Below are positions 8,948-27,547 of a stretch of DNA of 64,000 bases, piece by piece (the stretch's first letter is position 1; each line of letters begins with the position of its first letter). This stretch comes from a virus (lineage: Duplodnaviria; Heunggongvirae; Uroviricota; Caudoviricetes): IMG/VR virus record IMGVR_UViG_2724679539_000005, positions 1 to 64,000 of that record; one strand, written 5' to 3'. The notes under the pieces were generated by a model. It did no database searches and was not told the DNA's origin. It saw only the letters and a program-made list of their open reading frames with translations. Both the position numbers and the translations under genes were made by a program.

Positions 8948-9178
8948 ATGATGAGCACACCATTTTACAAAGTGCGCCAGTTAGCTTCTTCCTCTGGCTG
9001 GCAGCTACGGTTTGAGGGGCGTTCAGACTGGCTACCCATTGCGGCATGGGCGAATGTTGAAATGTGTATTGACGGCGATACCGTTGAAATCATTATTCCC
9101 TGCGTGGCAAGTCGGGACGGCTGTATAGAGCCAACAGATATGGCAGCAGAAATCAGAGAGGTAAAACATGAACAATAA
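8948..9178 (+). CDS. Hypothetical protein
   Basis: 76-aa ORF. Confidence 0.4.
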   Translation: MMSTPFYKVRQLASSSGWQLRFEGRSDWLPIAAWANVEMCIDGDTVEIIIPCVASRDGCIEPTDMAAEIREVKHEQ

Positions 9179-9905
9179 CTATTGCATACTGCAGGGAATG
9201 ACCAGAACGGAGCGCGAAGAATTAAAAAGTTTCGCTACACAGTGCGGGAATGCTGGCGACATCCAAAGTCTGGAACGCACTTTAATTATGATTGCGCACT
9301 GGATGCGCCAGGGGCAAAGAGTTTCATTTACTGAATATGCCAGCCAGTGGACAGAGGCACAGCGCGAACGGAGCGACGGTAATCACTCAACACCCGAAAT
9401 GGCGAAGCAATGGCCTTTCAGTGGTAAAAGCTGTATCAGTCCCGGTGGTTCAGATTATTACCCTGCTGGTGTGGGAGATGAGCCATGTTGTGACGAGACT
9501 GAAATCCGCCACGCAGTGACAGTAATTACCGCTGAATACCCACAATTTAACCTTGACGGACTGGCGCTCCACAACCGGAATGCGGACTGGGAAAACCCGC
9601 TTGATAACCCGTCATTTATCGTGTCGGCGAAAAGCTGCCTGAGATGGATCAGAGACAACGGGATGAGTAATGCCCAGATTGAGAGCTTCCCGCAGGATAA
9701 CCCCACATCTGACACGTTGAAGCATGAAGTGGAGCGATATAACCAGATAAACCACCAGCACAGTGATCACCCGCACTATATCCCCAACGGAGCATTTATT
9801 GCGGCGATGGTGGCAAGCGGCTACAAGGTTAAGCCAGCGGGAAGAATGAACGCATTTTTCAATATTTCAAAAAAGGGATTATGTGCTGCTATGGGTAAAA
9901 ATTAA
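9168..9905 (+). CDS. Hypothetical protein (245 aa)
   Basis: ORF flanked by the two iteron clusters. Confidence 0.5.
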   Translation: MNNNYCILQGMTRTEREELKSFATQCGNAGDIQSLERTLIMIAHWMRQGQRVSFTEYASQWTEAQRERSDGNHSTPEMAKQWPFSGKSCISPGGSDYYPAGVGDEPCCDETEIRHAVTVITAEYPQFNLDGLALHNRNADWENPLDNPSFIVSAKSCLRWIRDNGMSNAQIESFPQDNPTSDTLKHEVERYNQINHQHSDHPHYIPNGAFIAAMVASGYKVKPAGRMNAFFNISKKGLCAAMGKN

Positions 9906-9911
9906 ATAAAT

Positions 9912-10014
9912 GGTACAGGTCTGTACAGGTGGGGAGAGGTCATTTTTACCCACCTGTACCACCTGCAGGCCGCGCCACACAAGGGTTTGTGACATGGTGG
10001 TACAGGTGGTACAG
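9912..10014. repeat. Iteron cluster 2 (GGTACAGGT / ACCTGTACC units)
   Basis: Several direct and inverted copies of the same motif as cluster 1. Confidence 0.5.
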
Positions 10015-10381
10015 CAAAAACAGCGATTTTCTTTATAAGGTATGTTTTGCTCATCTGGCAGACGGAGGTATTCGCTGCGGTTTGGCACATAGCCCAGAAC
10101 AGCAAAGAGTTTTACGAGACTTTTGTAAAATCCAGTGTACAAGGGCGTGACGTTTTTGAAGGTGAGCACTACGAAATTTTTGTAGTTCAAAAAATAGCCT
10201 CTGAGATGTTGTTATGCCTGTTCAGCAAACCATCCGCATAGCTGATCGCGAATCAAATTACCAATGGAGCCAGAAGCAAGGGAAGAACTGGAAAGCGCCT
10301 GCCGTGAAGAGTAATGCGACTCCATAAATATAGTTTTTAGAGTCCATAAAAAAACTGTCAAAACCTGACATACAGAACGAT

Positions 10382-10412
10382 GCCACCAGCTACTGAACGG
10401 TGGCATTTTTTT
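10382..10412 (+). terminator. Rho-independent terminator
   Basis: GCCACC..GGTGGC hairpin followed by T7 run. Confidence 0.45.
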
Positions 10413-10507
10413 GTGCTATTTGTTTCATATTTTGCAATCACAATGATGAATGTTGCGTTTTATGAAACTATAATGACTGTTGTTTTATACAGTTCTAAGG
10501 GGGCGTT

Positions 10508-10681
10508 ATGGCTATTTCAGTAAAGCCAGTATTGATAAGTGAGAAGCAAATGGAAGCGATAAAGAAAATTCAGGAGGAGCAGCGTAAAAAATCAGAGGTA
10601 GGAGTTGCGCCAACGATCCACGAAATTGCTCGGGGATTAATGGATAAGGCGCTGGCTTACACTTTAACTGGACGTGGGTAA
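10508..10681 (+). CDS. Small protein (57 aa), possibly YlcI/YnfO-like prophage protein
   Basis: ATG with AAGGGGG SD; product MAISVKPVLISEKQMEAIKKIQEEQRKK; not in supplied ORF track (under 60 aa). Confidence 0.35.
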   Translation: MAISVKPVLISEKQMEAIKKIQEEQRKKSEVGVAPTIHEIARGLMDKALAYTLTGRG

Positions 10682-10685
10682 ATTT

Positions 10686-12029
10686 ATGGCTACGTGGCAA
10701 CAGGGTATTAATTCTGGTGGTTTTCTGGCTGGCATCGGTGCGCAAAATGAGAATGCGCCAAAGGCAAGCGACATTAACGCAACGCTTGGTCTGATCCGCG
10801 AAAACAATGAACTGGCTCGCTCAGGTGCAAATAACGTTGCTCTGACAGGTCTTCGTGGTCTGGCTGGAGTTGCTGACATTTATAAGCAGCAGCAACAGCA
10901 GGAACGTAAAGCGGCATTCCAGAAAGGTTATGCAGATGCTTATGCGTCCGGTGACAGGGAGCAGATGCGTAATCTTATTACAGCATTCCCAGAAGAGTTT
11001 GAGGAAGTCCGTAAAGGGATGAGTTATGTCGATGATGCTCAAAGGGATGATTATGGCAATCTGGCGCTCAAAGCACAGGTAGCCTCATCGCTTGGTCAGG
11101 GCGCATTTGGCAGGTTCATGATGGATAATGAGCAGGAGATGCGTCGTTTAGGTATCCCTCCAGAAACTATTGCTGAAATGCAGGTTAATGACCCGCAGGG
11201 CTTCCAGCATTTCGCAGGTAATCTGGCGCTGTTTTCTCTCGGTCATGAGAAGTATTTCGATATCAAAGATCAAATGGAAGGTCGTCGACTTGAGCAAGGG
11301 CGACTGGATGAAAGTATGCGTCAGGCTGACATGGAGAACGCGAGAGGATGGGCAAATATCCAGAACGCTCAACTAGACAGGGCTCAGCGAGCACAAATTC
11401 ACTCAGATGAGATGGGATTGAAGCTAATGGAGCTGGGGCAAAAAGGTAAGCCGTCAGCAGACTTAATTAAGGGATTAAATTCTGACATTACCAATTTTGG
11501 CAAAAATTATAACTCTGTCAGAGCGGCGGCAAACTCTCTGCAAGCCCTTAGCAAGGTAAATACTGGCGCTGCCCAACTTGGGATTATCTTCAACTACATG
11601 AAATCTCTTGACCCGCAGTCAGTCGTTCGTGAAGGCGAACAGGTTCAGGTAATGCGGTCTGATGGCATATGGGGACAAATCAAAGGATACATAGACCAGC
11701 TTAATGCTGGAAACGGCCTGTCGCAGGAGGCAAAGGATAACATTGTTAACGCCGCAAAAATCAACGCCAATGCTATGGGGCAGCAGTTTAACCAGCAGGT
11801 TGACGAGTATCTCGATACATATGGAGAAACTATTCCTCAGGGGCTAAGAAAAAGCCTTGAAAGAAGGAAAGCGAAGCTATTTGACGATGTTTCCGGGCAG
11901 CCTACATCACAGGCTGGCACTGGACAGGCAAAAGCGGCAACCGGAGGAATATCAGAAGGCGCAACGGCAACCAACCCTAAAACTGGTCAGAAAATCATTT
12001 ACAGGAACGGAAAATGGCAGCAAATGTAA
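10686..12029 (+). CDS. Hypothetical protein (about 450 aa), Gln/Ala/Asn-rich
   Basis: Long ORF; alternative GTG start at 10674. Confidence 0.6.
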   Translation: MATWQQGINSGGFLAGIGAQNENAPKASDINATLGLIRENNELARSGANNVALTGLRGLAGVADIYKQQQQQERKAAFQKGYADAYASGDREQMRNLITAFPEEFEEVRKGMSYVDDAQRDDYGNLALKAQVASSLGQGAFGRFMMDNEQEMRRLGIPPETIAEMQVNDPQGFQHFAGNLALFSLGHEKYFDIKDQMEGRRLEQGRLDESMRQADMENARGWANIQNAQLDRAQRAQIHSDEMGLKLMELGQKGKPSADLIKGLNSDITNFGKNYNSVRAAANSLQALSKVNTGAAQLGIIFNYMKSLDPQSVVREGEQVQVMRSDGIWGQIKGYIDQLNAGNGLSQEAKDNIVNAAKINANAMGQQFNQQVDEYLDTYGETIPQGLRKSLERRKAKLFDDVSGQPTSQAGTGQAKAATGGISEGATATNPKTGQKIIYRNGKWQQM

Positions 12030-14131
12030 TCTTACCGGAAGGTTTTGTGCTCGATGAACAACCTGATAACTCACAGTTTCCTGATAGTTCACAGCTTCCT
12101 GATGGTTTTGTGCTTGATGCCCAACCAGAACAGCAGCAATCACCTTTGGTTTCACCAGAGGAAAATTCCAGACAGGAAAATGTTGTTAATAATGCTAACG
12201 GTTTCGACCGTTTTATGTATGGCGTTCTCAGTGGATTGATGGATGTTGGTAAAGGTGTTGGCCTGTTTCAGGATATGACACCAGAAGAGCAAGCCGCAAT
12301 TCAGTCTCTACAGCAGAAGTTAGCGGCAAAACCATCAACCGCACAAGATGTTGGTGAGTTCGTTGGACAAGCAGCGCCATTTGTTAGTGGTGGTGGGATT
12401 ATTTCTCAGGTTCCCAAAGGGGCGGCAAGACTGGCTGCCGCCGCAGGGCTTGGTGCTGGAGAAGGGGCTATTGTAGCCAATGGAACAAATAGCGATGTTG
12501 CTTCCGGCGCTGCTATTGGCGCTGTGGCTGGCCCTGTAGCCGAACTTGCTGGCCCTGCAATTAATAAAATAGCTGGGAAATTAACCAAGAAGAATGTTTC
12601 TTCGATTCCAGATATTGAGGGGATTACTCCTGCCGAAGAGAAAATTCGTAAGTTATCTGCACAAGGCAACCCAAATCTTGCCTCTTCGCTTGAAGGGCTA
12701 GATCTAAAACCTCAGAAAGAAATTGTTGAGGCTGCAAATAGGCTTCATGTTGATTCAGTTCTTCCTTCTCATTTATCAGGAAATGAGCAATACCAAGCTG
12801 TAGAGCAAGCCCTAAAGTCACGGACAGGATCAGCGTTAAAAGCTCAAGAAGATAAAGCAATAAGCGAATTAGCCTCTAGTGCTGGCAAGATAATCGATGA
12901 TGTTGCTGGTGCGCCAGATGCGTTAGCTATGAGCGAAAAATATATTTATCAGATAAATAGTAGAATGGAAGCACTAAAAAACCGTAGTGATCAGTTATAT
13001 AAACGTGTTGATTCCGCTCTATCACCAAGAACAAAAGTCGAAGCAAATAACACAAGCACTATGCTGGAAAAAATCGCTGATGATTTAGGAGGGTGGGATA
13101 ATCTTGACCCAATAGAAAAGCGAGTTTTTACAGCAATAAACCCCGGACCAGATAGCATCCTAACGTATGCAAATTTAAACAGGCAAAGGCGTTTAGTTGG
13201 TGATGCCCTAAATAAAAAGCAGGGGCCATACAAAGATGCTGATAAAGAAACGCTATCAAGACTATATGGAGCTTTAGCTGAAGACCAAAAATCTGTCTTA
13301 TCCAATACTGGATACTTGCGAGATTTCGAAGTCGCACAACGCCTTGTAGCTATGAGAAAAAACTTAGAAAGGCAAATGGTAAATCTTCGCGGGAAAACAC
13401 TTAATGGGGATATAGCGTATAAAGTAACGAATTCTCTTCAATCTATGGCAAAAGGTGATGCGAGAGGGTTTCGTGAGATTATGCAAAATACTCCATCAAG
13501 AACATTGCGAAGGGAGCTAGTAGGAACAGCATTAAGAGATATGCTTTCCTCTGGGAAGCGTGGGGCCGACTTTAATCCATCTGGCTTTGCAGATTGGTGG
13601 CAAAACTTGCAACACAGTGGACAGCTAAAGACTTTGGCTGAACATTTGCCAAAAGAAACAATGAGCGGACTATATGATGTATACAAAGTTGCCAGAGCAA
13701 TAAAAAATGCTAAAGCGCATGAAATATCTACTGGTAAGCTGAATGAGTTTGTAAACAGATTTAATCGGGTAACAGCTCCATACGAACTAGCAGCAAAACA
13801 CATTCAAAAAATAGGCACGATGGTAGGCGCTCATTTTGGATCGCTTGGAGCCATTGCTGGGGCTGATATTGGAGCAAGATTGGCGAGTAAAGCTCGATTA
13901 GCTGGTGGAGCAGGGGCGGCTGATGCTGCGGATAAATTAATTGCCTCGCCAGCCTTCCAGAGCGCAGTAAAAAATCTACACGGAAAAGCGCCTGGGCACA
14001 TTGTTGATTCACGTATCAGGCGCTCCCCTCAATGGAAGAGTTTTTTTAACTCTCTTCCTGAACAGGAAAAACGGACCATCGCCAGACTGGGCATCATTAC
14101 TTGGCTATCTAATGATCCAGATAATGACTAG
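12014..14131 (+). CDS. Hypothetical protein (705 aa) with Ala/Gly-rich segments
   Basis: Start overlaps end of upstream gene (coupling). Confidence 0.65.
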   Translation: MAANVILPEGFVLDEQPDNSQFPDSSQLPDGFVLDAQPEQQQSPLVSPEENSRQENVVNNANGFDRFMYGVLSGLMDVGKGVGLFQDMTPEEQAAIQSLQQKLAAKPSTAQDVGEFVGQAAPFVSGGGIISQVPKGAARLAAAAGLGAGEGAIVANGTNSDVASGAAIGAVAGPVAELAGPAINKIAGKLTKKNVSSIPDIEGITPAEEKIRKLSAQGNPNLASSLEGLDLKPQKEIVEAANRLHVDSVLPSHLSGNEQYQAVEQALKSRTGSALKAQEDKAISELASSAGKIIDDVAGAPDALAMSEKYIYQINSRMEALKNRSDQLYKRVDSALSPRTKVEANNTSTMLEKIADDLGGWDNLDPIEKRVFTAINPGPDSILTYANLNRQRRLVGDALNKKQGPYKDADKETLSRLYGALAEDQKSVLSNTGYLRDFEVAQRLVAMRKNLERQMVNLRGKTLNGDIAYKVTNSLQSMAKGDARGFREIMQNTPSRTLRRELVGTALRDMLSSGKRGADFNPSGFADWWQNLQHSGQLKTLAEHLPKETMSGLYDVYKVARAIKNAKAHEISTGKLNEFVNRFNRVTAPYELAAKHIQKIGTMVGAHFGSLGAIAGADIGARLASKARLAGGAGAADAADKLIASPAFQSAVKNLHGKAPGHIVDSRIRRSPQWKSFFNSLPEQEKRTIARLGIITWLSNDPDND

Positions 14132-14150: not shown

Positions 14151-14576
14151 TCAATCTTTATTCTTTGAAATAGAGTCATTGATCTTTTCGAAACACCAAT
14201 GAAATCCACAAAAGAGAGCTACACCAATATAACAATACAAAACTATCAACCACCTTTCAGTGTCCGAAGGGTAAAAAACATCAATTACATAAGCAACACC
14301 AATTGGTATTAATGCTAGTAATAACATCGACACAGGACGTACAAACTTCTGAACTATATCAATTTTATAGAACCACAAGGCGGTATGTTTAATGATATAA
14401 GTAAAGATGGCTGCGCCAATAATGGCAAAAAACACCATCGATAAAGTCGGGTATAACTTTGCGACAATTAAACCCAACAAAATAATTATAACTGCCTGCC
14501 CCCTCACACCAACCCTCCCTTTAGCTTTGTTTAGAATGGCAATCATCATATATCCAAGACATGGCATTTGGTACAT
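14151..14576 (-). CDS. Predicted multi-pass membrane protein (about 141 aa from internal Met; ORF extends to 14765)
   Basis: Three hydrophobic helices; convergent with the 705-aa gene. Confidence 0.4.
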   Translation of the reverse strand: MYQMPCLGYMMIAILNKAKGRVGVRGQAVIIILLGLIVAKLYPTLSMVFFAIIGAAIFTYIIKHTALWFYKIDIVQKFVRPVSMLLLALIPIGVAYVIDVFYPSDTERWLIVLYCYIGVALFCGFHWCFEKINDSISKNKD

Positions 14577-14699
14577 AGCTTGGGTCGGGATTTCAAATCC
14601 GCCCCCGTTGATGGGGTCGTTACAGTACGCGCATATCCGCTTTATGTGAAACAGGAAGATTTTTCTGATATCACTGCCACAGCAAAACACCAATTTCGT

Positions 14700-14715
14700 G
14701 ACCAGTACGCGCGCG
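14700..14715. repeat. 16-bp motif GACMAGTACGCRCRCG, copy 1 (others at 14753, 14984, 17701)
   Basis: Four near-identical copies within 3 kb; copies 1 and 2 flank the palindrome CAGTTGCAAAATTTTTTGCAACTG. Confidence 0.5.
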
Positions 14716-15338
14716 AGGGGTATCAGTTGCAAAATTTTTTGCAACTGCGTCCGACCAGTACGCACACGATGGCGGGGGATACCATGAAACTGTTCTCTAC
14801 ACGAGACAGAGTGGTGGTGATGTGTTGATTATCGGCGTATATGCGCACAGGACGCGCTATGACGATGTTTTATGCGGGTACACCAATCACATGTATCTGG
14901 TGTGATAAATCGCGTTACATGACCTCTCATGTTGTGCTGGTGGTTATCACGACGTTCTGAATCTGGCTTTTGTCTGATATTTTGCGACAAGTACGCGCGC
15001 GTAACATCGAAATTATCGGATGGCGTATGTTGCTGGCAAGATAAAGTCGGCGTAATACAAAGGCGTTACTTGATAGCAGCAAGATTACAACAATGGTTGT
15101 TGAATTTGAGCGATGTAAGGAATTGATTTAGGGAGGCGCTGATGGCTAAAAAGTTCCACTACCAGCGGATGAATGCGCCAGCGATGGCCGTTTGGTAGTA
15201 AAAGAGGAGCCATTCCTCAATCAGTTGAATACATTATGCCAACTAAATGGGTGGGGGCACTGTGTGGGTATTCAGCGGTGACGGTATTTTTTAAGCCAAG
15301 GACTATCCGTAGCAGGGGGACTCATTTTGAAATATTTA

Positions 15339-15776
15339 TCATATGTAACTTATTATTTTAGATAAAGATTTCCAGTTAAAGAAAAAAGTTATCATTGATA
15401 TAATCAAATATGCCCCTGCGAGTAGCAGGGCATAATAATCCAGAGGCAGATTGCTGACAACAGGGGCAAACATCGAGATCATTGCTAATAGGCAGGCTGT
15501 GATCAGCGTAGTTCCTGTATCAAAAAGCCCCTCAATAATGCCTTTTAGTACTCCGTTACTTTTTAGAGCGCCTACAATTCCCTTTGAACTATCAAAGCTA
15601 CTTAGCATGGTGACTGATGCCAAAACAAAACCAAAGAGAACTCCAGAAATAGTTGAAAGAGCACCAGCAGCCGAAATGACAGCATTGTGATCTAGGTCGT
15701 GTAAAAAATGGGCACCAGCAATAGCCATAGCTAGAGCAAACAATGACTTGGCAGCAAACAATTTCCGAGAACTCAT
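15339..15776 (-). CDS. Small membrane protein (145 aa, four predicted TM helices)
   Basis: AGGAA SD 12 nt after upstream stop; hydrophobic segments throughout. Confidence 0.6.
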   Translation of the reverse strand: MSSRKLFAAKSLFALAMAIAGAHFLHDLDHNAVISAAGALSTISGVLFGFVLASVTMLSSFDSSKGIVGALKSNGVLKGIIEGLFDTGTTLITACLLAMISMFAPVVSNLPLDYYALLLAGAYLIISMITFFFNWKSLSKIISYI

Positions 15777-15788
15777 AATGTATTCCTG

Positions 15789-16874
15789 TTACGTTTGACT
15801 AACCAAATAGTACTGGGTTAGATACCTAAGGTTGTCATTCTTTGCTTGTAGCATAGCATTTTTAACGTCAGTATCGGTCGGATACCCATCTGCTTGGATA
15901 GGCACCATCTTCTTTACCGTAAGAACTTCGTCTACAAGACTTTTCTTCTTTTTATCGCCCTGAGCAACAACATTTGCTTTCTCAAAAGTTAAACGACCAT
16001 CACCACCAGGGAACTTTTCTAGCATCTCCTTAAGGCTTTTTTTAACGTCATCCTCAAGCCATCCCTTTGCTTTTCTTTTTAATGGAGAATGTCCGCGTAA
16101 CGAAATAGTCAGGTGGCTTGAACTGGTGCCTCTGATCATCTCAATCATCTGATTCGCGAACATTCCATCGAGTTGATACTGTGCGGCATTGAAGTTTCTT
16201 GGGATGGCCACAGAAATCTCGCAGCTTCTTAGATTGGATCCAGTTTCGAGTAGTTCTTTGATGCTTTCTTCTTTCCAAATGGCTTCAAAAGAAACAGGGA
16301 CTCCGCGATCACTGGAGTTGAAAAGAAGGAAGGCTAAGTCACTATGGCGTGGACCTAAATGATTTAAAGACAATACTAGAATGTCTGTCTGAGGATAATA
16401 AATAAAGTATGTACGTTCTGAAAGAGTCTTTGCCCCGGCTAGAGGGATTTTCTCTTCCACCCACTCTTTATCTGTAATATATGCCAGTGTTGCGCTTTTT
16501 CTTCTTCGAGACATGAATCCGAAGTAGGAGCCATCCTCGGGTGAGATGTCTAGAAAATGAATTTTAAGTTCTCTTTCACCAAAGTCTGCATAGTGGGTCA
16601 TCTTGAAGTCTTTAGAACACCGATCATACAGATTTTTAAAGGCCTCTGCGGTTAACCCCTTGTTACTAGTGCGAATATTCTCAGAGCTTGTGTAAAAGCC
16701 CACCCTTACAGATTTCAAACTTTGATCTTTTGGTGCCACAGTCATTTGAGCTCCATTGTACTCTGCGATAGTTTTTGCACACCTTGAAATCAAAATCTCC
16801 ATGTCAGTCACGAGAAAATAACTATGGATGAAACCCATCAAAGGCATTGAATACAGGTGGCTTTTGAGAATCAT
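15789..16874 (-). CDS. Hypothetical protein (361 aa), first gene of two-gene AT-rich operon
   Basis: Long AT-rich ORF, no recognisable motif. Confidence 0.65.
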   Translation of the reverse strand: MILKSHLYSMPLMGFIHSYFLVTDMEILISRCAKTIAEYNGAQMTVAPKDQSLKSVRVGFYTSSENIRTSNKGLTAEAFKNLYDRCSKDFKMTHYADFGERELKIHFLDISPEDGSYFGFMSRRRKSATLAYITDKEWVEEKIPLAGAKTLSERTYFIYYPQTDILVLSLNHLGPRHSDLAFLLFNSSDRGVPVSFEAIWKEESIKELLETGSNLRSCEISVAIPRNFNAAQYQLDGMFANQMIEMIRGTSSSHLTISLRGHSPLKRKAKGWLEDDVKKSLKEMLEKFPGGDGRLTFEKANVVAQGDKKKKSLVDEVLTVKKMVPIQADGYPTDTDVKNAMLQAKNDNLRYLTQYYLVSQT

Positions 16875-17225
16875 CCTAACCTGGTGACGGTGGTTCGCAT
16901 ATCCTGATGGATGATCAGTGATTAATCAATGCGCCAAGCAGATGTGTCTATGTGTTTGTTAATCATTGCATGACAGTAGATCGACATGGGAGATCACGTT
17001 ATATAGTTGAATTGTTAGGATATCCATGCACCGATCAACTGACTAGGCTGATGTGCTTTTTAGCAGGTGCCATATAGTAGTTAGGCGGTTCTGTGAAATG
17101 ATTACTGTTCCAGCATAACTGCGGCATAAAGCGGTGCTATATAAGCTATTTGCTGGCGGATTTAGTCTTCACCGTTAATATATGTAGTGACTATTTGACA
17201 GAGTGTTAGTTCACGGACACTTTTT

Positions 17226-17335
17226 GTTGGTTCAAAATGAGTTGATGTTGGTTCAATATTTTAGAAAAAACACAATAAAAACAACGCTCTTTACAAATTG
17301 AACCAACTGAACCAACTGAACCAACTGAACCAACA
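17226..17335. repeat. GAACCAAC repeat array: two inverted copies plus four tandem 9-bp copies (GAACCAACT)
   Basis: Tandem array at 17300-17335 and GTTGGTTC copies at 17226 and 17247, upstream of the PerC-like gene. Confidence 0.6.
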
Positions 17336-17370
17336 CCTTTTTGCTTATCTATATAATCTGAGAGGCAGAA

Positions 17371-17652
17371 ATGATAAGGGACAGGAAAGCTGAAGAGCTG
17401 GAGTCAAAAGGGCTATACCGGAGAGCTGCCGCACGATGGATGGAAGTCATGCTGTTATGCACCGAGGACGATGATCGGGAATGGATAAAGCGCCGCCGTG
17501 AAACGTGTCTGGAGAACGTGAAGCGCCCGCCCGTGAAGGTTGAGGAATTTGGCGACCTGCATAAAGCTGTTACCGAAACGCAACACCGCATGGGGATAGC
17601 GCAACCGAACGGTAACGCCTTCCGGTTAAATGGCGGCAAGAGGCAAAGGTAG
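17371..17652 (+). CDS. PerC-family transcriptional activator-like protein
   Basis: 93 aa with LESKGLYRRAAARWMEVM motif resembling PerC/Pch. Confidence 0.55.
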   Translation: MIRDRKAEELESKGLYRRAAARWMEVMLLCTEDDDREWIKRRRETCLENVKRPPVKVEEFGDLHKAVTETQHRMGIAQPNGNAFRLNGGKRQR

Positions 17653-19381: not shown

Positions 19382-20542
19382 TTACCTCGCATTTAAGTAA
19401 ACTACGTTCTCCTCTTGTGCCGTATTTGTGCCATTGCGACTTATAATCGCATCGATTTTGCTCGCGTGCTCGGTGAGATGCCCAGCTGAAAGGTGGGCGT
19501 ATCTTTGAACCATTTCGAGAGTTTCCCATCCTCCCATCTCTTTAAGTGCAAGAAGAGAGACACCGGACTGAACCAGCCAGCTTGCCCAGGTATGCCTCAG
19601 GTCATGGAAGCGGAAGTTGCTAATGCCTGCCCGCTTTAACGCTCCCTTCCATGCCTTGTTGCTGTCGGTTCTCATCTTCCTTACCGCTGCTGTTTTTGTT
19701 CCGTCGCTTCGGTAGGCAGGTTTGGTGTGGACAAATACCCATCTCTTATGGAGCCCCTGCTGTTTTCTTAATATCTGGCATGCGGTTTCGTTAAGAGGAA
19801 CTCCGATCGCATTGCCAGCTTTTGTTTCATCAGGGTGCATCCATGCCATTTTCTTATCCAGATCGACCTGTGACCACTCAAGGTCTGTAACGTTGGAACG
19901 ACGAAGGCCTGTCGTGATTGCAAACATGACCACAGGGAAGAAATGAGGAGCAATTTCTGCAAACAGGCGCTTCGATTCCTCCTCTGTAAGCCATCTGATT
20001 CGTCCATTCTTAACGCGTGGTGTTGATATTTTGGGCGCCCTGTCAAGCCATCCCCATTCAACAGCCATATTGAGAATAGCGCGAAGTATTGCCAGATGCC
20101 GCGTCTTCGTTCCTTTGCTTGCCAGCTTTGGTTTATACTCCGGCACTGGCTTGCCAAGCCGCAAACACCTATCCCGGCTCATCTCCCAGTTCAGGCGATG
20201 GCGGCGGTTTTCCATCCCGTCTACCGCCTCCATTATTTTTTCTGTTGTTATGTCAGAGAGAATGGTTTCTCTGAAGTGCAACATCCAGAACGATATAATG
20301 CTCTTGTCATCATCAATGGACTTCTTATCCGATTTCTCACGCAGCCACCGTATGCAGGCTTCCTTGAATAGCTTTTTCGGTGATTCCCCGAGATTTTTTA
20401 CTCTCCACGCTTCTGCTTTCAGACGATCGTGAAGTTCTTGCGCTTGCCTCTTGTCCGATGTTTCAAGAGAGCGTCTAACTCTTGATCCATCTGGCGCGAC
20501 GAAATCGCAGTGCCATGTGCCACCGCGCAGTTTGATTGACAT
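19382..20542 (-). CDS. int: Phage integrase (tyrosine recombinase, lambda family)
   Basis: 386 aa; catalytic HDLRHTWAS and LEMVQRYAHL motifs. Confidence 0.9.
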   Translation of the reverse strand: MSIKLRGGTWHCDFVAPDGSRVRRSLETSDKRQAQELHDRLKAEAWRVKNLGESPKKLFKEACIRWLREKSDKKSIDDDKSIISFWMLHFRETILSDITTEKIMEAVDGMENRRHRLNWEMSRDRCLRLGKPVPEYKPKLASKGTKTRHLAILRAILNMAVEWGWLDRAPKISTPRVKNGRIRWLTEEESKRLFAEIAPHFFPVVMFAITTGLRRSNVTDLEWSQVDLDKKMAWMHPDETKAGNAIGVPLNETACQILRKQQGLHKRWVFVHTKPAYRSDGTKTAAVRKMRTDSNKAWKGALKRAGISNFRFHDLRHTWASWLVQSGVSLLALKEMGGWETLEMVQRYAHLSAGHLTEHASKIDAIISRNGTNTAQEENVVYLNAR

Positions 20543-25168: not shown

Positions 25169-26215
25169 TCAGTTATCCTTTAATAACCTATACAGTTTTG
25201 TAGGGGTACATCCTGAGGATATTGTTAAGTTCGTAGCACGCCTTTTCCGCCCACCATCGTATAAACGAAAACCAGTAGTAGACGAATTTTCTGCGTCAAA
25301 AACTATAGACAGTATAACGTCCCCAGACTTTTTTTGCCATTCATATGTGCCGTTAGTTGGTTTTGTCATCTGTAGACGCCAGTCAAGAACGCCATCACTT
25401 ATAGCTGAGAGATCGTTTAGTACGTCTAGTACGGATTGATATCTTTCATTTGGATCTACATGAATGCATTTGTTTACTATTGTTATCAATTTTTTATGTA
25501 TGTGGGAAGGATACTCTTTTAATGGATAGGAGCCATTAATTATCGACTCTCTGAGTTGTTCAATCGTTCTAAATGCAGATCTTTCTCTTTCAAAATTATC
25601 ATATCCAACACACATTCTATATATGGTTAATCCTGCCTGATATATGTCATATGTGAAATTATAATCATTTGTTGATAAAGAAAAATATTCCGGTGGCACA
25701 TGAAAATGATATCCAAACTCAGGCGCAGCTCTCGATTCCTCATTGACTAACTGAGACAATCCAAAGTCAGATAGCATGGCCTCATTTCTGTTTGATATCA
25801 TGATGTTATTAGGTTTTATATCAAAATGCATAAGACCTTTTGAGTGTATATGATAAAGCCCACTTAAAAATTGAATAGAATACCGTATTATCTCCCTGCT
25901 CGTAAGATTAATCTTTTTTATTAATTGGTTTAGCGAACCATTATGATAAAATGGCATGGCTATATAGATATTGCTCTCACATTGAGCAGCATACTGAACT
26001 TGCACAATATTTGGATGTGCATGTTTATAGAGAAGCCTTGCTTCATTAAAGTAGTCGTCGTGGTTAGTGTTTTCTTTTTTTTCTATTTCTTTAATCACCA
26101 AGTCATGAGCTAGGTGTCTGTCATGAGCCAGATATACTTTTGAAAAACAACCCTGTTCTTCTAGATCACGAATCCATTCGAATGCTACATCAGCTCTTTT
26201 GTATGGAGTCAGCAT
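25169..26215 (-). CDS. Eukaryotic-like (Hanks-type) Ser/Thr/Tyr protein kinase
   Basis: Gly-loop GCFSKVY, VIK lysine, catalytic loop HFDIKPNN, SDFGLS, PPE; AT-rich. Confidence 0.8.
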   Translation of the reverse strand: MLTPYKRADVAFEWIRDLEEQGCFSKVYLAHDRHLAHDLVIKEIEKKENTNHDDYFNEARLLYKHAHPNIVQVQYAAQCESNIYIAMPFYHNGSLNQLIKKINLTSREIIRYSIQFLSGLYHIHSKGLMHFDIKPNNIMISNRNEAMLSDFGLSQLVNEESRAAPEFGYHFHVPPEYFSLSTNDYNFTYDIYQAGLTIYRMCVGYDNFERERSAFRTIEQLRESIINGSYPLKEYPSHIHKKLITIVNKCIHVDPNERYQSVLDVLNDLSAISDGVLDWRLQMTKPTNGTYEWQKKSGDVILSIVFDAENSSTTGFRLYDGGRKRRATNLTISSGCTPTKLYRLLKDN

Positions 26216-26670
26216 CCCCTTACCTCCGCAGATAGTGCAGCCAAAACAGCTTCATTTGTTTCAGTTGTAAAACCAGAATTATCGATTCCATTTATATTAC
26301 GGTGTGACTTCAATATTTCTTTATACTCGATCTCTGTTAGGTTCAATGATGACTTCATACCAGATTTTCTAATGGTGTAATATCTTCTTACATCACTGCT
26401 TGAAAATGCTTCTTGAATAACAGCTTCTATATAAAGGCGGTCAATGCTAAGATTATCAGAGTTTGATTCAGTAACGCGTATAGCAGCTAATTCAACATTA
26501 TATAAATTAAGAATGTCGAGGATGTTATTTCGCACATACTTTAATTTTTCTGGTGTGTCTAAGGTCGAAGGTATTTTAATAACATCAACACATTTGAGTG
26601 CAGACTCATCAGTGCAATATACAACAAAAGATGTAACTTTGGGCGCCGCCCTAACACCTAGTATTCTCAT
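26209..26670 (-). CDS. Hypothetical protein (153 aa) coupled to the kinase gene
   Basis: Stop overlaps kinase start by 7 nt; AT-rich. Confidence 0.5.
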   Translation of the reverse strand: MRILGVRAAPKVTSFVVYCTDESALKCVDVIKIPSTLDTPEKLKYVRNNILDILNLYNVELAAIRVTESNSDNLSIDRLYIEAVIQEAFSSSDVRRYYTIRKSGMKSSLNLTEIEYKEILKSHRNINGIDNSGFTTETNEAVLAALSAEVRGC

Positions 26671-26750: not shown

Positions 26751-27443
26751 TTATCCATGTTTCCTGTATGTTTGCGGCATGCTCCCAATAACTTTCCCGA
26801 AGATAAACACCCGGTTCATCTCGTCTTTCTCGATTGGGTCCCACGGTGAGTAGCTCTTGTTATCAGAGATAACCAGCAGTTTATCCTTCATCATTTGCAG
26901 GCGCTTAACATGGGCTGTGTCGTCATACAGAAACGCATAGATACCATCACCGTCGAAAGATTTAACAGTGATATCAACGAACAGAAGATCACCTGGTTCG
27001 ATCGTTCCTGACATGCTGTCACCGCGTACGTTAATGATGCGGATATTTTCTGCCTTCCTGCCATCGAACATGTGACGAGCATCGTCAAACGAGTACTCAA
27101 CCGAGCGTAGAACTTCTACAAACTCACGGTTGATGACTCCCGGCCCGGCACTCACTTCTATATCAAGAACGTCAATCTTGAAGTATTTGGGATGGTTGGC
27201 AGCAGGCTTCCCTGATTGTTGACCGTCATTTCTCATCGGGCCTATGCCTGATGAGAGCCACTCTGTTCGAACACCCAATGCATTAGCTATTTCAACAATT
27301 TTTGTTGAGCCGCGTGCGTTGCCGCTTGTCAGTCTCCAGATTGTGGGTTGAGCTACGCCAGACGCCTTTGCAAGAGCGCCTTGAGACATTCCAGATTGTT
27401 CCATCGCTAGGTTTAAGCGATCAGCAAGAGTTTCTTTTTTCAT
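26751..27443 (-). CDS. cI: CI-like prophage repressor (HTH plus S24 peptidase domain)
   Basis: N-terminal HTH MSQGALAKASGVAQPTIWRL, C-terminal LexA-like domain; ATG at 27443 preferred over track TTG at 27479. Confidence 0.85.
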   Translation of the reverse strand: MKKETLADRLNLAMEQSGMSQGALAKASGVAQPTIWRLTSGNARGSTKIVEIANALGVRTEWLSSGIGPMRNDGQQSGKPAANHPKYFKIDVLDIEVSAGPGVINREFVEVLRSVEYSFDDARHMFDGRKAENIRIINVRGDSMSGTIEPGDLLFVDITVKSFDGDGIYAFLYDDTAHVKRLQMMKDKLLVISDNKSYSPWDPIEKDEMNRVFIFGKVIGSMPQTYRKHG

Positions 27444-27547
27444 AAGTTTTAATTTATACGCTTGCGTATTGATGGTCAAAACACGTTTTGCTATTGATTG
27501 GGTTAATACGCATTGCTATTATCCATTCATTGTAATACCAATAGGAA
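27444..27547. promoter_or_regulatory. Putative OR/PRM/PR operator-promoter region
   Basis: Divergent cI/cro intergenic with repeated TTGCTATTGAT / TACGCATTGCTATT motifs. Confidence 0.5.

Follow-up and report, generated by a model that had tools for sequence, protein, structure and literature searches.

A probable RexAB-type phage-exclusion cassette in a variable cargo slot of an Escherichia coli genomic island

What function two tightly coupled minus-strand genes serve in the cargo region of a mobile island is the question raised by a locus within IMG/VR virus record IMGVR_UViG_2724679539_000005, of which we analysed positions 1 to 64,000 (64,000 nucleotides (nt), hereafter the window). The two genes are referred to below as gene A and gene B, and their products as protein A and protein B. 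An earlier note on this DNA had suggested a Rex-like or novel abortive-infection module. Computational analysis supported the Rex-like part of this suggestion, and we consider the pair to be probably a RexAB-type two-component phage-exclusion (abortive infection) cassette located in an island hotspot and shared with lambdoid prophages. Novelty in the strict sense did not survive; because the Sucellos and RexABpp systems are already in the literature, the pair is probably not a categorically new system but a further member of the Rex-like kind.

The structural prediction for protein A, 318 amino acids (aa) in length, pointed to RexA. The AlphaFold2 (AF2) model (predicted local distance difference test (pLDDT) 74, predicted template modelling score 0.62) was searched with Foldseek against the PDB, as the earlier note had advised, and RexA ranked first (E 1.9e-7, prob 1.00), with RdgC second and a wide gap between the RexA match and the next structural match. 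Sequence identity to RexA in the structural alignments was 13–14 %. The predicted model displays the split globular domain and dimerisation domain of the RdgC-like RexA fold, RdgC being the structural relative described for RexA (PMC11077077). RdgC itself, a recombination-associated DNA-binding protein (PDB 2OWL), is the product of a chromosomal housekeeping gene without a membrane partner, and its match to protein A was much weaker than that of RexA.

Family scans were less direct. Neither protein had a match in PADLOC v2, NCBIfam or Pfam, and the PADLOC run proposed in the earlier note therefore assigned no defence family; the sole hidden Markov model (HMM) matches of the pair, TubZ-like_C and DUF2649, scored well under the cut-off and were discarded as noise. 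A PDB sequence search found nothing, and the only family matches of the pair were PHROG 7651 (protein A) and PHROG 8552 (protein B), both of 'unknown function'. Protein A did not match Pfam DUF6731 (PF20505; gathering threshold 27 bits), whereas homologues with 43–49 % identity to it scored 31–45 bits, above the threshold. A profile search of 1.84 billion representative proteins yielded 133 relatives, mostly of 280–320 aa, and the DUF6731 threshold was passed by 55 of 63 sampled remote homologues. As it is the homologues that pass, rather than protein A itself, protein A is predicted by transitive homology to be a divergent member of the DUF6731 superfamily. Named relatives occurred in Yersinia, Aeromonas, Pseudoalteromonas, Shewanella, Vibrio, Providencia, Salmonella and others and carried only DUF6731 or hypothetical labels, and the term 'DUF6731' was absent from the collection of papers searched.

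Comparison of the DUF6731 superfamily alignment with a 26-sequence RexA family alignment in hhalign gave 217 collinear columns (E 0.003, prob 10 %) and a score of 28.6, compared with a maximum of 20.1 in 11 controls (one reversed and ten column-shuffled alignments). Shared GFY and GPxxSDLxxxL motifs were also noted. A Salmonella orthologue 61 % identical to protein A is labelled 'DUF4747 family protein' in UniRef, and DUF4747 is the domain described in RexA and in gp30 of mycobacteriophage Sbash (PMC6426596). For protein A only the family-versus-family comparison rose above controls; hhalign of each family against single sequences of lambda RexA and RexB or Sbash gp30 and gp31 was not significant. 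Collectively, the alignments are weakly but consistently suggestive of homology between the protein A family and the RexA family.

Protein B, RefSeq WP_000098670.1, conformed to the earlier description of a 145-aa product with four hydrophobic helices. It contains four hydrophobic blocks with long predicted helices at residues 3–24, 30–63, 76–103 and 112–144, and its AF2 model is a four-helix bundle (pLDDT 69). Both termini are basic whilst the loops at 25–31 and 104–113 are acidic, a charge pattern that would suit the N-in/C-in topology put forward for RexB and for Sbash gp31 (PMC6426596). In a Foldseek search against BFVD, the second-ranked match was a 165-aa Sbash protein (prob 1.0, E 0.04, TM-score about 0.5), although helical bundles match promiscuously. 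Since the only 165-aa coding sequence of Sbash is gp31, this match can be identified as gp31, an experimentally validated RexB-like effector.

The arrangement of the two genes also agreed with lambda RexA/RexB (PF15969/PF15968; PDB 8TWQ), in which a RexA-fold soluble protein is likewise followed by a four-helix membrane protein of about 145 aa. Lambda rexA-rexB encodes 279 aa and 144 aa across a 15-nt spacer, and the pair 318 aa and 145 aa across 12 nt, in the same order. Protein B resembles lambda RexB in size and in the charge distribution on its termini, both proteins of the pair have a basic isoelectric point similar to those of lambda RexA and RexB, and both systems are borne by temperate mobile elements. 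Partner size, terminal charge, the gp31 match, and gene order and spacing agree with the Rex-like layout anticipated by the earlier note. A toxin–antitoxin or addiction module, in which a membrane toxin is neutralized by a soluble protein, or a superinfection-exclusion function blocking DNA entry at the envelope, would be a different reading of the same layout, given that mobile elements often carry small membrane toxins together with soluble partners and that anti-proteolysis and toxin–antitoxin-related effects have been reported for RexB. We regard it as very unlikely, since the RexA fold of protein A points to a specific Rex relationship, no toxin–antitoxin family was matched in Pfam, NCBIfam or PADLOC, and the larger, soluble product is encoded first, as in rexA-rexB.

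The two genes behaved as a unit across genomes. Related loci numbered 83, of which 80 were on IMG/VR contigs and three came from a scan of GTDB species representatives. Each of them had a protein B homologue encoded immediately 3' of gene A, and these partners were hydrophobic, 143–157 aa in length (one truncated, 113 aa) and 34–100 % identical, with intergenic spacers of −20 to +28 nt and one of 88 nt. Three of four very distant DUF6731 loci carried an overlapping multi-transmembrane (TM) partner of 138–148 aa, and an LFGF/LLGF motif in the second TM helix (TM2) was common to partners at distant loci. One distant DUF6731 locus on an IMG/VR contig (L097:3932–4885) was without a membrane-protein ORF 3' of the large gene; degradation of the copy, a missed gene call or the existence of a solo variant could each account for this. 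The ratio of nonsynonymous to synonymous substitution rates (dN/dS) was 0.055 and 0.065 for the two genes against a relative with 91 %/88 % identity; with dN/dS of about 0.06 for both, gene A and gene B are under strong purifying selection. Genes A and B always adjoin, with A first, and co-evolve under purifying selection. A four-TM partner of about 140–180 aa that is encoded beside the soluble component and conserved along with it is the RexAB-type arrangement.

This unit was found in several types of mobile element. In E. coli, 42 of 5426 complete genomes carried the pair, all at ≥99 % identity, and the strains included uropathogenic, asymptomatic bacteriuria (ABU) and enterotoxigenic E. coli (ETEC) isolates, among them ABU 83972 and ETEC H10407. 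Among 24 representative loci (23 from viral clusters and one from a genome), 16 had a divergent pair (approximately 27–47 % identical) oriented convergently to the lambdoid prophage Q antiterminator gene, and orf54/orf53 of phage cdtI were likewise convergent to Q. Elsewhere, such a pair adjoined the integrase of a Vibrio cyclitrophicus element (Vinavirales), and further family members were found in V. natriegens and E. cloacae. In Salmonella enterica, an orthologous pair (L140:6663–8406) was located between a DinI-family gene beside pepN and a prophage remnant with AlpA, HTH_17, invertase and tail-fibre genes. The large protein of this Salmonella cluster was present on at least 1000 contigs, indicating that the orthologue is near-fixed in some lineages. 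These distributions show that the same cassette moves as one unit between different mobile-element types, and its recurrence in varied elements and in a variable slot is as expected of an accessory defence cassette that is self-contained.

Coordinates of the cassette are given in Table 1. The coupling of two minus-strand genes across a 12-nt spacer with a Shine–Dalgarno sequence, as reported in the earlier note, was confirmed; the spacer reads 'caggaatacatt', with AGGA 7 nt before the gene B ATG. The 361-aa length given there for the first protein corresponds to the maximal ORF in the ORF listing (15789–16874, minus strand) and is over-extended. Translation almost certainly begins at M44 (ATG at 16745), based on the 957-nt RefSeq gene (WP_001528727.1), a PHROG 7651 match beginning at residue 46 of the 361-aa ORF, homologues that all start at the equivalent of M44, and a GGAG motif 5 nt upstream of this ATG. 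The terminator-like hairpins 3' of gene B were no more numerous than in shuffled sequences. The earlier observation that the genes are markedly AT-richer than their surroundings was correct in direction for both flanks, yet the difference is modest (41.4 % GC in the cassette, 43.4 % in the left flank and 49.1 % in the right).

Table 1. Features of the two-gene cassette, in window coordinates
Feature	Coordinates	Strand	Description
Gene A	15789..16745	-	318-aa soluble protein with predicted RexA fold, predicted divergent DUF6731 superfamily member; presumed sensor/activator
Gene B	15339..15776	-	four-helix membrane protein of 145 aa; presumed effector forming a RexB-like pore or channel
Intergenic spacer	15777..15788	-	12 nt with AGGA Shine–Dalgarno; translational coupling; read from sequence
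5' non-coding part of cassette	16746..17224	-	presumed own promoter/regulatory region; inside the variable segment relative to EC931
3' non-coding part of cassette	15047..15338	-	two terminator-like hairpins, 15218-15204 and 15169-15155
Whole variable cassette	15047..17224	.	2178 bp; fills the cargo slot of the island

The island begins with a P4-type integrase (1–1215), followed by DUF6387, AlpA, AntA, Ash, a TOPRIM/DUF5906 primase and P22-type injectosome genes, and continues through the cargo slot, perC and a pRiA4b-ORF3 gene to an end near 19437. The cassette accordingly lies between the primase and ejection-protein genes and the att-distal end, as the earlier note had placed it. A near-identical island was identified in strain Ec1120 at the tRNA-Thr beside proA, with an integrase end that differs from that in the window. 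The description of the element as P4-like holds for its integrase, AlpA, Ash and primase, but is applicable only loosely, because psu, delta and sid were not annotated in identical islands and the element carries P22-type ejection genes instead.

Comparison with strain EC931 placed the edges of the variable segment at 15046/15047 and 17224/17225, with flanks 98.8 % identical. In EC931 the cassette is replaced by 1902 bp encoding AbiD (PADLOC E 7e-58; Pfam Abi_2 E 2e-52) and a 146-aa ORF. The conserved flanks of the slot, at 14151–15046 and 17225–17652, were present in 636 of 5426 complete E. coli genomes (about 12 %), in which ImmA/IrrE-type and HTH genes were among the other occupants. The presence of AbiD in the same position in other strains establishes the slot, located between a conserved membrane-protein gene and perC, as a true variable defence hotspot, in keeping with the variable cargo position claimed for the pair at the outset.

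Two further explanations are best considered against this background. The pair could encode a regulator of the element's life cycle or DNA transactions, whereby a RexA/RdgC-like DNA-binding protein and its membrane partner modulate induction, lysis–lysogeny or recombination. RexA does bind DNA non-specifically and biases the lambda switch to lysis independently of RexB (PMC11077077), and RdgC was the second-best structural match of protein A. However, the cassette is found in unrelated elements with different regulatory circuits (island, lambdoid Q region and Vibrio element), alternates with AbiD in the cargo slot, and occupies that slot in 42 of approximately 636 flank-bearing genomes; this pattern identifies it as accessory cargo rather than a core regulator and makes a regulatory role quite unlikely. 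Alternatively, the genes could be a 'moron', an accessory pair unrelated to defence that changes host physiology or virulence, perhaps through membrane transport or a stress function, with the likeness to RexA being one of analogy. The function of the pair does rest on prediction, and the pathogenic and ABU backgrounds of carrier strains noted above would suit such a role. The specific fold match to RexA with its large gap to the next match, the collinear profile similarity to the RexA family and the defence-hotspot context of the slot nonetheless render this explanation highly improbable.

Among characterized systems, the closest by description was Sucellos (SclA/SclB), a cassette of the Vibrio cholerae superintegron with a RexAB-like predicted structure that is missed by the Pfam RexA and RexB models; both of its genes are needed, it acts by abortive infection, modelling of SclB gives a transmembrane pore, the cassette carries a promoter of its own, and homologues are reported mostly from prophages, often of Salmonella (bioRxiv 10.1101/2024.07.02.601686). 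Like Sucellos, the pair is a two-gene cassette that is RexAB-like by structure without a Pfam RexA or RexB match, and circumstantially both occur in Vibrio, in Salmonella prophage contexts and in E. cloacae. DefenseFinder now includes Sucellos, with calls made in S. Enteritidis and in an E. cloacae P4-like satellite; PADLOC v2.0.0 (2023) predates the system. Near-fixation of the Salmonella orthologue would fit the near-universal 'Sucellos' calls in S. Enteritidis. A V. cholerae member was not found in cluster look-ups of 26 family representatives, and a plasmid search for the pair returned no Vibrio copy. Comparing by description, we think it rather likely that the pair belongs to Sucellos, in which case it would constitute a divergent enterobacterial branch carried in an island hotspot rather than an integron cassette. 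The view that the DUF6731 and four-TM pair forms a separate, ancient Rex-type branch, distinct from Sucellos and missed by current defence finders, is held more tentatively, and we consider it doubtful. Such a branch would extend across Enterobacterales, Aeromonas, Vibrio, Shewanella and Pseudoalteromonas, and its trigger or specificity may differ from that of lambda Rex.

Sucellos and RexABpp demonstrate that RexAB-like systems missed by the Pfam RexA and RexB models are functional defences (bioRxiv 10.1101/2024.07.02.601686; PMC12894663). The prophage-borne RexABpp of Pseudomonas putida (PP_5643/PP_5644) is larger than the pair, RexApp with a His tag being 37.5 kDa and RexBpp at least 181 residues, and lies downstream of a CI-like repressor, unlike the pair (PMC12894663). 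For PP_5643, an HHpred probability above 95 % to RexA has been reported. The actinobacteriophage pairs Sbash gp30/gp31 and CarolAnn gp44/gp43 consist, as here, of a soluble protein and a four-TM partner. As with the pair, Sbash gp30 and gp31 had no Pfam or PADLOC match; hhalign found no sequence similarity of the pair to either, gp30 is 372 aa compared with 318 aa for protein A, and the hosts of actinobacteriophages are Gram-positive. Kiwa (KwaA, four-TM; KwaB, DUF4868) similarly combines a small multi-TM protein with a soluble protein of about 310 aa, but was rejected because neither KwaA nor KwaB was matched in PADLOC or Pfam and its gene order is reversed; no Kiwa chain was among the listed structural matches of protein A.

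The gp30/gp31 pair of mycobacteriophage Butters, as summarized in PMC12894663, is an inverted variant in which the soluble protein is the effector, and raises the possibility that in the present cassette the RexA-fold protein is the toxic or antiviral component whilst the membrane protein sequesters and silences it until infection. The same summary describes Butters as operating by such an inversion; its soluble and four-TM architecture is identical to that of the pair, and the present data fit both logics. Even so, the membrane protein is the effector in four of the five Rex-like systems covered by that summary, SclB of Sucellos is likewise modelled as a pore, and a strictly co-conserved, pore-like four-helix protein with a conserved TM2 motif (LFGF/LLGF) is at least as consistent with an effector as with a tether. 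We therefore view inversion as unlikely and retain the RexAB-type assignment of roles.

Several results weigh against a RexAB-type defence cassette. At E≤1, no match was obtained between protein A and the RexA HMM or between protein B and the RexB HMM in Pfam and PADLOC, whereas lambda RexA and RexB, used as controls, matched their models strongly (RexA, E 1e-97 and 9e-110). Lambda RexB was absent from the top 50 BFVD matches of protein B. An hhalign alignment of the protein B family to 14 RexB sequences, spanning a His-TM2-loop region, gave E 0.015 and a score of 20.6, no better than shuffled controls (maximum 19.8), and was set aside. The confidence of the AF2 models is moderate for both proteins. 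The pair does not adjoin a cI repressor gene, unlike lambda rexAB, which neighbours cI and is under PRM; it resides in the island cargo slot or beside Q. A sigma-70 consensus scan of the region upstream of gene A (16746–17224) found no promoter. Finally, the defence role, toxicity and A–B interaction of the pair are predictions by computation.

Lambda RexAB, Sucellos SclAB, P. putida RexABpp and Sbash gp30/gp31 serve as models for a proposed mechanism that builds on the anatomy and relationships described above and in which sensing, A–B interaction and pore formation are each presumed. Proteins A and B would be made constitutively from the cassette's own promoter. Upon infection, protein A would sense a phage product or a phage DNA–protein intermediate and activate oligomers of protein B, which would then open a pore or channel and collapse the membrane potential and ATP pool, such that phage development would halt in a growth-arrested or dying cell. 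On the more tentative separate-branch view, the P22-type ejection genes of the island suggest injected phage ejection proteins or entering DNA ends as one possible trigger.

Several features surrounding the cassette deserve mention. The P22-type DNA-ejection genes of the island (9168–14131, plus strand) include Inj_translocase (10674–12029; E 2.5e-73) and a 705-aa 'injection protein' (12014–14131); capsid or packaging genes were not annotated on the island, making these ejection genes an unusual satellite-like cargo. The gene at the left edge of the slot (14151–14546, minus strand; WP_001363070.1, 131 aa) encodes a conserved multi-pass membrane protein with a weak, sub-threshold match to Bax inhibitor-1 (E 1.6e-4; 22 bits versus a cut-off of 34). 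In the conserved flank just upstream of perC, the 9-mer TGAACCAAC occurs six times within 17226–17337, four times in tandem and twice inverted, and these repeats resemble iterons or sites for regulator binding. Related islands (L001 and L096) have a second, inverted copy of 17218–17325, approximately 76 % identical, between the primase gene and the genes downstream of it. A second tyrosine integrase (19382–20542, minus strand; Phage_integrase E 9e-35) starts a different mobile element at the point where similarity to the Ec1120 island stops (~19437). The two elements thus abut there, and the att-distal end of the island is also a junction.

The neighbouring prophage carries a very AT-rich gene pair of its own (34–37 % GC; 25169–26670, with 26751–27479, both minus strand), in which a 153-aa ORF without a family match overlaps the gene for a 348-aa Ser/Thr protein kinase. 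The kinase matched Pfam Pkinase (E 1e-46) and the PADLOC models PD-T4-6 (E 1.5e-36) and mad6 (E 8e-49). This pair is directly downstream of a CI-like repressor (Peptidase_S24 and HTH_3), the position of rexAB in lambda, and probably provides the window with another defence module.

The sensing function of RexA and the gating of RexB are still unsolved some 70 years after Benzer's rII experiments (PMC12894663; PMC11077077). The novelty of the present result is modest, since Sucellos and RexABpp had already proved the existence of Rex-like systems that sequence searches miss. It nevertheless suggests a function for PHROG 7651, PHROG 8552 and Pfam DUF6731, and indicates that Rex-type modules travel as self-contained cassettes through island hotspots, the lambdoid Q region and marine Vibrio elements. 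About 12 % of complete E. coli genomes harbour an island of this family, and its slot is a place to look for additional cargo; the pair, in turn, could affect the phage susceptibility of strains that are clinically used or studied, such as ABU 83972 and ETEC H10407. Were the separate-branch reading to prove true, a whole Pfam domain of unknown function would gain a function and Rex activation would acquire a tractable E. coli model.

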